Source: an uncultured bacterium (GTDB lineage: Bacteria > Armatimonadota > Hebobacteria > Hebobacterales > Hebobacteraceae). From it: a stretch of 64,000 nt of DNA. Location of the stretch: NCBI GenBank assembly GCA_964559435.1, contig CAZLHI010000004.1, forward strand, positions 23,408 to 87,407, written 5' to 3'. Shown here piece by piece: positions 15,772 through 23,727 of the stretch (position 1 is the stretch's first letter; each line of letters starts with the position of its first letter). The notes below the pieces were generated by a model. The model was not told the origin of the DNA, made no database searches, and saw only the letters and a list, made by a program, of their open reading frames with translations. The position numbers were made by a program, and so were the translations under genes.

Positions 15772-16677
15772 ATGGAGCAAGCGACTCGCAGGGCTCGGTT
15801 TGGCGTCGATTCGGTAAGACGCGCGAAGCTCTACGACTTCCAGTTGTCCCCGGCAACACCCTTGTATGCTGACAGCAATCTCTTTCCCGAGGAGACACCA
15901 TTGGAGATCGAGGTGCACGCGGGCATCGAGGTGGGAGTCCTGCTCGCCGGCTCAGAGGAGCACCAGCTCGACGATTGGGTGTGCCGCGTGGTACCCGGAG
16001 ACGTCTGGCTCACCGCCACCTCGGAGCCGCATGGATGGCGGGTCGCAGCACCGAACACCGAGGACGTGATCCTCATCTTCCTGCCCGAGTTCCTAGGGGA
16101 AGAACAGCTCGGCAACTATTCCTGGCTCGATCTTTTTGCGCTTCCGGCCAACCAGAGGCCGCGAGTGACGACGCCCGAGATGCGAGAGCGCGTGATGGCA
16201 TTGGGGCATGAGCTCCGGCGCGAGGTAGAGGAGCGGCGACCCGGCTGGGAGAGTGCGGTGCGGCTCGGTCTGCTCAGCCTGCTGCTGACGCTGAGCCGCG
16301 AGTGGGAGCCTCCGGCCCAGTCGAGCGTGCGATCTCGCGTCCGGGCGAGCAGCCTTGCTCGGATCATGCCGGCGCTCAACCTAGTTCAGTCGCGCCCGGC
16401 GAGGCGAGTAGCGGTGGCCGAGGCGGCGAGGGCCTGTGGGCTCAGTCGAGCGCAGTTCTGCCTGATCTTCCAGCATGCAGTGGGGATGAGCTTCGGCCGC
16501 TTCTGTCGCCGCTCTCGACTAGGCTATGCGGCGGAGCTTCTGCTTTCCACCGACCTGACGATGGGTGCGATCGCCCAACGTGCGGGCTTCTCGGACAGCA
16601 GCCACATGCACCGCTCGTTCAGCCGCCACTACGGCTGCACGCCGGGGCAGTACAGAGCGCAGAACCGACCCGAGTAG
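15772..16677 (+). CDS. AraC-family transcriptional regulator (N-terminal cupin-like sensing domain plus C-terminal dual HTH). Paralog 1.
   Basis: The C-terminus has the AraC HTH signature ...AAELLLSTDLTMGAIAQRAGFSDSSHMHRSFSRHYGCTPGQYR. RBS GGTGGAG precedes the ATG. It is about 60% identical to the 18214..19119 product. Confidence 0.85.
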   Translation: MEQATRRARFGVDSVRRAKLYDFQLSPATPLYADSNLFPEETPLEIEVHAGIEVGVLLAGSEEHQLDDWVCRVVPGDVWLTATSEPHGWRVAAPNTEDVILIFLPEFLGEEQLGNYSWLDLFALPANQRPRVTTPEMRERVMALGHELRREVEERRPGWESAVRLGLLSLLLTLSREWEPPAQSSVRSRVRASSLARIMPALNLVQSRPARRVAVAEAARACGLSRAQFCLIFQHAVGMSFGRFCRRSRLGYAAELLLSTDLTMGAIAQRAGFSDSSHMHRSFSRHYGCTPGQYRAQNRPE

Positions 16678-16790
16678 CCGCCAGGGATAGTCGCAGAAGA
16701 CGCCATAAGCAGGCGGAGCGCCCGGCCGGGCGCTCCGCTCAACATTCCACCAAGAACGTCTATCTTGCTAGCGCAAGATCTGAACCAGTA

Positions 16791-17837
16791 CTAGTAGAGG
16801 AGCCAGTCGTTGTCGGCCAGGTAGCCCTCGCTCCAGTCGTCGGCCCTGGTCGGTCCCCAGCTAGAAATACCTGTCAGATCCCCCTCGGCGACCTTGTTGA
16901 TCAGGCCTTCCGAGTTGATCCAGGATGCATGCCCGTCGAGGAAGCCGAGGTTGACGCCGCCCAGGTGCCGCGAATACGGCTTGCGTAGATTCGGGTCCTT
17001 CAGGAAGGAGCCGTTGTTCGGCGCCATCAGATACAGCCCGCAGTCGGCCGCCCACGTGCAGATGTCCCAGTCCTGCCAGCCACAGCACGGGTTGCTGCAC
17101 TCCAGTGTGCAGAGGTCTGGATAGGCGGCAAGGCCCACGTTATTGTCCTCAGCGGAGGCGCCAGCATCACCGCAGATGACGTGGTTGACCGGGTCCGGGA
17201 CCTGCACCAGCTTCAGGCCACCCATCCACTGGGTGCCAATGGTCTGGACGAAGGCCTTGTTGACAGCATCCCCGCCATACTCGGCCACGGCGAGCCGGCG
17301 CTGCAGGTACGAGTCTGTGACCTCGCCGCCCCATCCTGGCGGCCAGGACCAGAAGCAGGGGCCAGCGATCCATGTATCGGCATCGGAGGCGCCGGGTCCC
17401 CATTCGGCGTCATAGGCCTGCAGGTAGGTGAACCAGTCAGGCCCGGGCACGATCCAGCTGGCGCCCCCTTCCATCCTGCCACTGGGGCAGCGCCAGACGT
17501 CACGGTTCTTCACGTACTCGTCGAAGATCACCGGATGTCGGAGGTAGGGGTTGCTCTGGAACACACACCAGTCGTCGTAGTCGTCCGGGGCCTTGGTCTC
17601 GTAGTAGTCGTGAATCTCCTGCCTGGTTTCGGTGGGCGGCAGAACGTCGTTGTTGTCCGCCAGGTACATCTGGATTGCCAGCGCAATGTTCTTGACATTG
17701 GACAGGCAGACAGCCTTGCGCGCGGACTCCCGCGCGCGGGCGAACACGGGAAAGACCATAGCGGCCAGGATCCCGATGATCGCGATGACGACCAACAGCT
17801 CAATCAGTGTAAATCCTCGTACTCTCCGCGTACTCAT
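16791..17837 (-). CDS. Prepilin-type N-terminal domain / DUF1559 / H-X9-DG family protein. Paralog 1.
   Basis: N-terminus [54 protein letters not shown] (DUF1559-type). C-terminal H-X9-DG motif [13 protein letters not shown]. The start was chosen at the ATG at 17837. Confidence 0.85.
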   Translation of the reverse strand: [348 protein letters not shown]

Positions 17838-22410: not shown

Positions 22411-22689
22411 CTCGCCTCGAAAGTCGGTGCCCCAGAGGCATGACTGCACGTGGCCCCGCCCCTCCAGCTCACGTACGGCGAGTGCCCCGGGGGAGGCGGC
22501 GCCTCCCCCCAACGCGGGCGGAGCGCCCAAACGGACGCTCCGCCTTAGCACTCCATAGAAAGCCTATCTTGCTAGCGCAAGATCTTAGCCAGTCTTAGCC
22601 GCCAGGCCTACAAGCGCCTTGGCGGGCGCTCCGCCCTTCGAGTCCGCAGAAGGAAAGCGTATCCTGCCAGTGCAGGATCGGAGCCAGTA

Positions 22690-23727
22690 CTAGTAGATCA
22701 GCCAGTTGTTCTCCGCGAGGTAGCCCTCGCTCCAGTCATCGTCCGTCGTCGGTCCCCACGGACCCACGCCCGAGAGATCTTCCTCTTTTATCTTGTTGAG
22801 AACAGTCTGGGAGTTGAACCACTGCGCGTGACCGTCGAGGAAGCCGATGTTTATGCCGCCCAAGTGACGCGCGTACGGCTTCCGTAACTCGGGGTTGGCG
22901 AGGAACGAGCCGTTGTTCGGGGCGCCGTTGTAGAGCCCGCAGTCCACGGCCCAGGTGCAGAGATCCCAGTCATACCAGCCGCAGCACGGGTTGCTGCACT
23001 CCAGGTTGCAGAGGTCCGGGTAGGCCAGGGTTCCCGCACCGAAGTCGTCAACGATGACGCCCGCGTCGCCGCAGACGACAGCGTTGACCGGGTCCGGCAC
23101 CGAGACCAGCTTCAGGCCTGATGCATAGACCGTCCCGATGCTCTGCACGAACGCCTTGTGGGCACCTACGGCGGTCCGCCCCTGCAGGATGGAGTCGGTG
23201 ACCTCACCGCCCCAGCCGCTCGGCCAGATTACACCGCACGGCTTCAGGTCGTAGTCGCCCGTTCCCCAGTCTCCCTCGTTGGCCACCATAAAGCCAAACC
23301 AGTCCGGGATCGGGATGACCCCACCCGCGCCGCCTTCGACCTTGGCGCTCGGGCACCGCCACACGTCGCGGTTCTTGACGTACTCGTCGAGAATCACCGG
23401 TATCCGCAGATACGGGTTCGACTGCCGGGCACGGTGGCAATCTCCGTCTTCGTCCACGTCCCAGCCATCCTCCCTGCCACCTGGTGCCAGGTTGAAGTAG
23501 TCCAGCACTTCCCGCCGGTGCTCTTCGGGCGGAAGTGTGTCGTTGTTGTCCGCCAGATACATCTGAAACGCCAGGGCGATGTTCTTGACATTGGAGAGAC
23601 ACACGGCCTTTCGGGCAGACTCGCGTGCCCTTGCGAAGACCGGGAAGACCATCGCGGCAAGAATCCCGATGATCGCGATCACCACCAACAGCTCAATGAG
23701 CGTGAATCCCTTGCGTCCTCGTAGCAT
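22690..23727 (-). CDS. Prepilin-type N-terminal domain / DUF1559 / H-X9-DG family protein. Paralog 2.
   Basis: N-terminus [53 protein letters not shown]. C-terminal motif [13 protein letters not shown]. Strong RBS GGAGGAGGTG upstream of the ATG at 23727. Confidence 0.85.
   Translation of the reverse strand: [345 protein letters not shown]

Follow-up and report, generated by a model that had tools for sequence, protein, structure and literature searches.

In Escherichia coli, araC-araBAD and rhaSR-rhaBAD are divergently transcribed pairs of an AraC/XylS regulator and its target. ToxT and PerA/BfpT are AraC-family activators of whole pilus operons, those of the toxin-coregulated pilus (TCP) and the bundle-forming pilus (BFP), respectively, including the assembly genes. 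In this study we analyzed a stretch of 64,000 nt (hereafter the window) from an uncultured bacterium of the Armatimonadota (contig CAZLHI010000004.1, positions 23,408 to 87,407), which encodes two AraC-type regulators (AraC1 and AraC2) and two prepilin-type proteins of the DUF1559/H-X9-DG type (DUF1559-1 and DUF1559-2). The initial annotation read them as two convergent AraC-DUF1559 modules. The window probably carries instead a conserved Armatimonadota locus that is built on a head-to-head unit of a sensor and a pseudopilin-like protein. This unit resembles the E. coli systems in its predicted N-terminal cupin and C-terminal double helix-turn-helix (HTH), its head-to-head target, its single control region and the autoregulation to be expected from it. 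It differs in a control region of ~60 bp with abutting -35 boxes, a regulator mRNA predicted to be leaderless, a metal-type HxHxxxE cupin and a target that is pseudopilin-like and not a catabolic operon. As with ToxT and PerA/BfpT, the unit links a regulator of the AraC type to a gene whose product bears a type IV prepilin signal, but here one regulator accompanies one pilin-like gene, many times per genome and with no assembly genes nearby. An AraC regulator that diverges from its target and AraC control of pilin-type genes are both already known; the locus belongs to a poorly studied phylum and family.

In Planctomycetes, DUF1559 proteins form a large paralogous family of unknown function, and in Planctopirus limnophila they are the biggest group of paralogues, with two essential members (PMC10632474). 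The family was earlier listed as solute-binding (PMC2754498). The DUF1559/H-X9-DG families of Planctomycetes, Lentisphaerae and Verrucomicrobia (PF07596, TIGR04294; PMC10632474, PMC2754498) have the same prepilin N-terminus, DUF1559 start, H-X9-DG motif and large paralogy as the proteins of the window, while the latter represent an Armatimonadota subfamily with a Cys-rich middle part of its own (CSNPCCGW). A pairing with AraC regulators is not described for these families in the literature found, in which no paper links DUF1559 to AraC regulators or to Armatimonadota.

The locus starts with AraC1 (15772..16677, + strand), followed by the convergent gene of DUF1559-1 (16791..17837, - strand, 348 aa). 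AraC2 (18214..19119, + strand), likewise an AraC/XylS regulator and with a predicted cupin sensor, diverges from DUF1559-1 and converges with a gene that encodes a fusion of a GT2 glycosyltransferase and a YdjC domain (GT2-YdjC; 19134..20702, - strand). Then come a PMT_2 membrane glycosyltransferase (20689..22410, + strand), DUF1559-2 (22690..23727, - strand, 345 aa), an ANTAR response regulator (24473..25096, - strand) and a GAF protein (25404-26405, + strand). All genes of the initial annotation were found at the positions and in the orientations that it gave, including the convergent gene after each AraC gene.

We annotated 119 related loci (L001-L119) with purpose-built profiles and considered 120 AraC genes in all. 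A divergent DUF1559 start lies within 900 nt of 48 of the 103 assessable AraC genes, and of 34 out of 60 AraC clusters after collapsing at 90% identity. The chance level is 3.9%, as determined for random positions in the same, already enriched loci. Only 8 of 61 clusters have a convergent DUF1559 gene after AraC, and all of these cases are tandem arrays or triads. A test of AraC-DUF1559 adjacency across related genomes, as the initial annotation had proposed, therefore upholds the pairing far above chance, but the conserved form is the divergent one and not the convergent one. Intact tandem arrays of the head-to-head unit are found in L009, L010 and L074. The complete order of the window (AraC1> <DUF1559 <>AraC2> <GT2-YdjC PMT_2> <DUF1559 <ANTAR) is the same in L037, and its left part is the same in L038, L040 and L041.

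The 376-bp spacer between AraC2 and DUF1559-1 contains back-to-back promoter-like sites, which together form a compact bidirectional promoter (18149..18206, both strands) as judged from sequence conservation and the promoter-like sites themselves. On the DUF1559-1 side (- strand) the site reads ATGACT-17-TAGAAT (18177 to 18149) and on the AraC2 side (+ strand) TGGACG-17-TAAAAT (18178-18206), with the two -35 boxes abutting within GTCATTGGAC. The block GTCATTGGAC-N17-TTGTAWAATCGTCTGN-ATGGAA (18173-18213 in the window) is conserved ahead of at least 14 AraC genes, which represent different genomes and sub-clades (L004-L010, L013, L015, L022, L037-L039). On the DUF1559 strand, TAnnAT boxes can be read by eye at a fixed distance from the shared -35 region. 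The AraC-side -10 box ends 7 nt before the ATG of AraC2 and no Shine-Dalgarno (SD) sequence precedes this ATG, from which we infer that the AraC2 mRNA is leaderless. The block occurs once in the window, with no further copies upstream of AraC1, the glycosyltransferase genes or DUF1559-2. AraC1 lacks it in the window, L037 and L038 and has an ordinary ribosome-binding site (GGTGGAG), while the single-copy AraC1-clade gene of L004 has retained it. The canonical partner of DUF1559-1 is AraC2.

These features suggest how the intact unit may operate. AraC2 and DUF1559-1 would diverge from the shared promoter region of ~60 bp, giving a DUF1559-1 mRNA with a leader of ~300 nt. The cupin of AraC2 would bind a small ligand or metal, upon which AraC2 would bind a conserved candidate site at ~18185-18213. 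This putative site overlaps the AraC2 promoter and, counted from the predicted start site of DUF1559-1, spans -48 to -71, so positioned that bound AraC2 could activate DUF1559-1 and limit its own synthesis. The DUF1559-1 product would be cut after Gly8 by a prepilin peptidase and be held by its invariant N-terminal helix in the membrane, or in a fiber resembling a type IV filament or a type II secretion system, presumably exposing a disulphide-rich head domain. In the second, decayed unit, AraC1 would be an ancient paralogue that arose by tandem duplication of the unit and lost its partner gene and promoter; it may now be transcribed from upstream.

Both regulators are bona fide members of the AraC family according to Pfam, with HTH_18 scores of 80.2 and 70.2 bits (cut-off 33.6) and HTH_AraC scores of 64.1 and 38.9 bits (cut-off 26.6), and AraC-type domains in the PDB match them with E-values down to 1e-12. 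No named AraC equivalog of NCBIfam is reached; the best are RhaR (51 bits versus 363) and AraC (44.3 versus 208). The cupin of AraC2 is recognized (Cupin_2 29.2, cut-off 27.2; AraC_binding 21.3, cut-off 21.1), while that of AraC1 stays under the cut-off of 27.2 (Cupin_2 19.2). The homologues of AraC2 form a smaller subfamily than those of DUF1559-1, also from Armatimonadota. AraC2 contains the metal-type cupin motif HxHxxxE(x)6G (H47-x-H49-x3-E53-x6-G60), and H49, E53 and H87 are invariant among 22 AraC homologue sequences (residues 47-60 and 85-87; 18352-18393 and 18466-18474 in the window). Because of this motif and its invariant residues, the ligand of AraC2 may as likely be a metal or a metal-bound compound as a sugar; the sugar sensing initially proposed for the AraC cupins is only a guess.

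AraC1 and AraC2 share 60% identity over 299 aa (E=2e-124), which agrees with the initial estimate. Likewise, DUF1559-1 and DUF1559-2 have the common N-termini and H-X9-DG motifs that had been reported: they are 66% identical (E=5e-169), their residues 8-54 are the same, and TIGR04294 scores above its cut-off in both. Dating of the pairs at the DNA level, another proposal of the initial annotation, shows that both duplications are ancient: synonymous divergence (dS) exceeds 1 in each (AraC pair, 1.62; DUF1559 pair, 1.19), and the ratio of nonsynonymous (dN) to synonymous divergence is ~0.2. No DNA similarity between the copies extends beyond the coding regions. For the 47 identical residues of the DUF1559 N-termini, dN is 0.07 and dS is 1.65, and these N-termini are therefore held by selection and not by recent conversion. 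A recent duplication or gene conversion was ruled out by this N-terminal dS together with the missing similarity outside coding DNA. Orthologues of each of the four genes are present in other genomes. With these orthologues and the dS and dN/dS values, the family cannot be called actively expanding, as had been suggested.

In a bootstrapped neighbor-joining tree, the AraC1 clade unites the window, L037 and L038 with L004, which has no other AraC (bootstrap 99). L039, L005 and L006 are each represented in the AraC2 clade by their only AraC gene, with bootstraps of 100 for the first two and 86 for L006. A sister relation of the AraC1 and AraC2 clades has a bootstrap of 72. Since single-copy genomes occur in both, the duplication is older than these lineages, which retained one copy, the other or both.

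Traces of a lost partner are present upstream of AraC1. The initial annotation noted a decayed third N-terminal fragment at 15214-15369; the fragment is real, but it comprises only 13 codons on the + strand (15298..15336), ~460 nt ahead of AraC1, and over 32 nt it matches the N-terminal DNA of DUF1559-2 at 87.5%. This relic lies at the same distance upstream of the AraC1-type genes in L040, L041, L061-L063 and L065-L067, and short coding copies of GFTLIELLV recur upstream of AraC1-type genes that have no partner. We found a second relic on the - strand (15546..15567), the decayed N-terminus of a DUF1559 gene and putatively that of the lost head-to-head partner of AraC1. It is located ~205 nt from AraC1, where the start of such a partner is expected (the spacer in L004 is 199 nt). 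In L040, L041, L061, L063 and L093 its motif is intact. The window has a decayed version, for which a count by eye gives ~17 of 22 nt; the intact 24-nt motif persists in non-coding DNA of relatives at 78-80% AraC1 identity. The two GFTLIELLV relics face each other, with the same distances in L040, L041, L061-L067 and L093. We take the relics to be what survives of a partner gene that AraC1 once had, in keeping with a tandem duplication of the unit and subsequent loss, and they bear out the past decay that had been proposed. Adjoining the second relic is a GC-rich inverted repeat, CCGCCCGG...CCGGGCGG (15573..15599, + strand). In the alignment of relatives it appears as an invariant GC-rich hairpin, terminator-like on the + strand in most of them; there is no evidence from covariation for it, because the stem never varies. 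A + strand RNA across the 15298-15600 region would have at its end a stretch antisense to DUF1559 mRNAs, in the conserved 5' part of their coding region.

Several observations weigh against a dedicated sensor-pseudopilin unit and its proposed history. No divergent DUF1559 gene is present in 26 of the 60 AraC clusters, some of which are head-to-head with other proteins. Distant AraC relatives are paired in this way with large secreted PKD-domain, GH123-like or beta-helix proteins (L015, L079, L087, L101, L108, L112, L115), and therefore the regulator family is not dedicated to DUF1559; this suggests that the AraC subfamily generally controls extracytoplasmic proteins. Among the 30 open reading frames of the window that were scanned, no genes for the assembly of a type IV pilus or a type II secretion system were found; nor did the window scans reveal a prepilin peptidase or other genes of a type IV filament machine. 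The + strand relic has the wrong orientation for a simple in situ remnant. Finally, while the clade of the ANTAR-side DUF1559-2 is firm (bootstrap 100), the remaining DUF1559 tree is poorly resolved, with bootstraps of 11-53 at key nodes, and does not cleanly mirror the AraC tree. It gave no confirmation of tandem duplication followed by reciprocal loss, and tandem duplication and loss is therefore only the most economical history.

Both DUF1559 proteins carry a prepilin signal with G-1, F+1 and E+5, supported by N_methyl (37.2 and 37.0 bits, cut-off 21.2) and TIGR02532 (32.4 and 36.0, cut-off 16.3). SBP_bac_10 (DUF1559, PF07596) scores 41.9 and 34.6 bits (cut-off 23.3), with aligned model positions 2-74 in DUF1559-1 and 2-35 in DUF1559-2 out of 268, and the H-X9-DG family TIGR04294 scores 24.9 and 21.3 bits (cut-off 19). 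The model of the major pseudopilin GspG of type II secretion systems (TIGR01710) is not reached (46.9 and 44.7 versus 88.85) and aligns with no more than the N-terminal ~65-97 residues. Full-length relatives of DUF1559-1 number in the thousands, at 55-80% identity, and metagenome-assembled genomes of Armatimonadota are the source of exact and close homologues. No variation is seen among 61 homologues in the first ~55 residues, in several cysteines or in the R-H-L-G-x-N-x-G-x-x-D-G-H motif. The structure of DUF1559-1 was predicted with a pLDDT (predicted local distance difference test) of 89.3 and a pTM (predicted template modeling score) of 0.86. The protein would be a pilin core with ~200 extra Cys-rich residues. 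A Foldseek search of the model against the PDB found nothing, and sequence matches concern the N-terminal helix only. Type IV pilins (PilA4 of Thermus thermophilus, 6xxd) and the major pseudopilin GspG of type II secretion systems (EpsG of Vibrio cholerae, 4lw9) are among the nearest known counterparts.

The leaders of these genes share a further element. Of 73 unique prepilin-type genes, 66 have a perfect SD-like sequence of 12 nt, GAAAGGAGGTGA, upstream of the start codon at a distance of 60-160 nt, compared to expectations for this position of ~11% (GGAGGY) and 2.8% (RGGAGGYG). GAAAGGAGGTGA is predicted to pair with the established 3' end of 16S rRNA. In the leader of DUF1559-1 the element is located at 17927..17938 (- strand), ~97 nt before the ATG, and in that of DUF1559-2 it reads GAAAGGAGGTGG (23810..23821, - strand), ~90 nt before the ATG; in the latter gene the ribosome-binding site proper is GGAGGTGA (23738-23745, - strand). 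The 64-kb window contains two AAGGAGGTG sites only, those of these two leaders. We considered whether the distal element is the ribosome-binding site of a longer protein, which is rejected by an in-frame stop between the element and the DUF1559-1 start, or that of a conserved upstream open reading frame, which is rejected since no conserved start codon follows it. Across 35 genes, it is followed neither by a start codon of conserved position, frame or length nor by a conserved upstream open reading frame. A conserved hairpin that hides the element was not seen, the pairing probabilities being scattered from 0.01 to 0.82.

The element is reminiscent of the STAB-SD (stabilizing SD) of Bacillus thuringiensis cry3A, at which a bound 30S subunit blocks decay by RNase J (PMC4113751). 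There, too, a long leader harbors, ~100 nt before the start codon, a perfect SD-like sequence (GAAAGGAGG...) that does not initiate translation (PMC4113751). The present element differs in belonging to another phylum and to a whole family of paralogues. At the sequence level it has the features of a STAB-SD, i.e., an SD-like sequence within the 5' untranslated region, far from the start and non-initiating. It looks like a STAB-SD-type stabilizer, with a ribosome stand-by site as the main alternative; it would thus either stabilize the mRNA or recruit ribosomes.

The two glycosyltransferase genes combine three predicted activities. The GT2-YdjC fusion consists of an ArnC-like GT2 domain, of the polyprenyl-phosphate sugar synthase type (Glycos_transf_2 80.5, cut-off 23.3), and a YdjC-family deacetylase domain (YdjC 221, cut-off 29.7), and the PMT_2 protein (57.6, cut-off 26.1) is an ArnT-like GT-C membrane glycosyltransferase. 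In the PDB, the GT2 domain matches ArnC (E=5e-21) and the PMT_2 protein matches ArnT (5ezm, E=2e-27), while the YdjC domain is similar to deacetylases of chitooligosaccharides (E=5e-27). The equivalog thresholds are not reached for ArnT (139.5 versus 567), ArnC (79 versus 529) or HpnK (200.3 versus 232.6). An ArnC-like GT2, a YdjC-family deacetylase and an ArnT-like GT-C enzyme are thus encoded side by side, in line with the polyprenyl-phosphate amino-sugar pathways ArnC/ArnD/ArnT and FlmF2/NaxD/FlmK of Francisella (PMC11279074). In contrast to these pathways, the GT2 and deacetylase domains are fused here and the genes are head-to-head with overlapping starts. These starts overlap or nearly abut in every genome compared, at 20689-20702 in the window, 5161-5162 in L003, 5352-5354 in L004, 12477-12488 in L037 and 12439-12492 in L039, and each promoter must therefore sit inside the other gene. 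Together, the enzymes would make a lipid-linked amino sugar and transfer it to a periplasmic acceptor. A GT-C enzyme, TfpW, is known to glycosylate pilins (10.1101/2020.04.19.049825), and the acceptor may be lipid A, another glycan or the DUF1559 proteins.

The initial annotation considered the glycosyltransferase pair as an insertion into the second AraC-DUF1559 module. We found the order <DUF1559 <>AraC> <GT2-YdjC PMT_2> in the single-AraC genomes L003, L004, L006, L007, L039, L044, L047-L051, L058 and L060, the AraC being of either clade. The pair is therefore an old neighbor of the AraC slot, and the insertion is contradicted. Downstream of PMT_2, sulfatase gene(s), a second DUF1559 gene and ANTAR follow in L004 and L039, while in L003 the ANTAR gene directly follows the sulfatases. 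These sulfatases, one or two genes, lie at 361-3456 (L003), 2032-3588 (L004) and 14224-15738 (L039); there are none at 22411-22689 in the window, nor at this position in L037.

DUF1559-2 is apparently a separate, ancient paralogue with its own promoter, TTGACG-17-(TG)TTACCAT (24197..24225, - strand), which is kept in L037, L004, L039 and L002. Read from 24225 to 24197, it implies a leader of ~460 nt. Orthologues of DUF1559-2 adjoin the ANTAR and GAF genes even in L002, where no AraC or glycosyltransferase gene is nearby. The gene can thus not be regarded as the pair of AraC2, as had been assumed. Leaders regulated by ANTAR proteins are recognized by a tandem of two hairpins, each with an A..G.. 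hexaloop, that is followed by a terminator. No such hairpins were found in 15 leaders or in the 745-bp spacer between ANTAR and DUF1559-2, the DUF1559-2 leader contains no terminator-like site, and Rfam gave no match at E<=1 in 14000-26000. ANTAR antitermination of DUF1559-2 is left unsupported, there being no such hexaloop hairpins, Rfam match or terminator-like site, and with no ANTAR-type RNA target found, the ANTAR neighbor is therefore an observation of synteny only.

How, then, do other explanations compare with a head-to-head unit of sensor and pseudopilin-like protein? The model of two convergent modules, with a later insertion of the glycosyltransferase pair in copy 2 and a family that is actively expanding and decaying, agrees with the gene order of the window, with the recurrence of AraC1 followed by a convergent DUF1559 in L037, L038, L040 and L041, and with relics that show some past decay. 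It is nevertheless highly improbable, given that convergent DUF1559 genes (8/61 clusters, all triads or tandem arrays) are far outnumbered by divergent ones (34/60), that AraC> <GT2-YdjC adjacency is found in single-AraC genomes of both clades, that DUF1559-2 has its own promoter and stands beside ANTAR without AraC in L002, and that the copies have no DNA similarity outside coding regions and a dS above 1. The AraC paralogues could also mainly control the ArnC-like/YdjC and ArnT-like genes for envelope amino sugars, comparable to PmrAB-controlled NaxD and Arn, with the DUF1559 genes as bystanders from an abundant family. The enzymes are indeed homologues of ArnC, NaxD and ArnT (PMC11279074), and AraC is immediately followed by GT2-YdjC in 24 of 96 cases at the gene level and in 15 of 61 clusters, in all three AraC sub-clades. 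Yet GT2-YdjC is convergent to AraC2 with only 14 nt between the stop codons, and they therefore have no common promoter; the conserved promoter block sits between AraC and DUF1559 and nowhere else in the window, and most AraC-DUF1559 pairs have no glycosyltransferase genes nearby. We consider such control rather unlikely.

A stronger competitor, though still clearly less probable than the head-to-head pseudopilin-like unit, leaves the pairing intact and changes the function of the target. The DUF1559 proteins would be membrane-anchored periplasmic or surface binders, in line with the SBP_bac_10 name, in which the prepilin signal serves for anchoring or release only and AraC switches on the binder that matches its substrate. 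The Pfam name and the older literature (PMC2754498) indicate a solute-binding family, the head domain is large (~290 aa versus ~100 aa in GspG) and without a fold match in the PDB, distant AraC relatives pair with secreted proteins of a glycan-degrading type, and the window scans found no assembly genes nearby. On the other hand, the first ~55 residues are invariant including E+5, a hallmark of subunits that pack into a fiber core, the best structural matches are assembled pilins, and there is no likeness to any known solute-binding fold.

Elsewhere in the window, a further prepilin-type gene (9103..9702, - strand, 199 aa) had been counted to the same family. It is prepilin-type, but it is a distant member that scores just below the SBP_bac_10 cut-off (23.2 versus 23.3) and has no H-X9-DG motif. 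It also has no distal SD-like element; orthologues are present in L003 and L039. It is convergent with a transglutaminase-like/Ig-like (KY-type) gene at 7846-9087, a pair that is syntenic in L003 and L039, while L004 has the transglutaminase-like gene only. The gene at 11313-13292 encodes a fusion of a DUF4932 domain with an intramembrane metalloprotease domain of the YhfC type. It is followed at ~13350-14299 by a multi-pass membrane protein without a Pfam match, of which a homologue is found upstream of an AraC1-type gene in L063.

We may speculate further that Armatimonadota possess a repertoire of interchangeable heads on one invariant pilin stalk, each turned on by a leaderless AraC sensor of its own for a ligand or metal via a shared mini-promoter, with STAB-SD-like leaders that would dock ribosomes and boost every transcript, and with amino-sugar decoration of these proteins, and not of lipid A, by the adjacent ArnC/NaxD/ArnT-like enzymes. 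This extended scenario is improbable as a whole; if true, it would amount to a display system of the kind ‘one sensor, one pseudopilin’, glycosylated by enzymes dedicated to it. The head-to-head unit as such is tidy but fairly ordinary, and it does not overturn current understanding. The corrected reading keeps a wrong operon model, the insertion of glycosyltransferase genes into a module, out of annotation. The promoter with its two directions, a regulator mRNA predicted to lack a leader and the SD-like element shared by the family are concrete, testable features in a phylum with almost no molecular genetics. DUF1559/H-X9-DG proteins are among the largest uncharacterized families of paralogues in Planctomycetes and related phyla, and here also in Armatimonadota. 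Their conserved head-to-head link, one gene to one ligand-sensing AraC regulator, offers an experimental handle, as the ligand would show when, and perhaps why, a member of this family is made.

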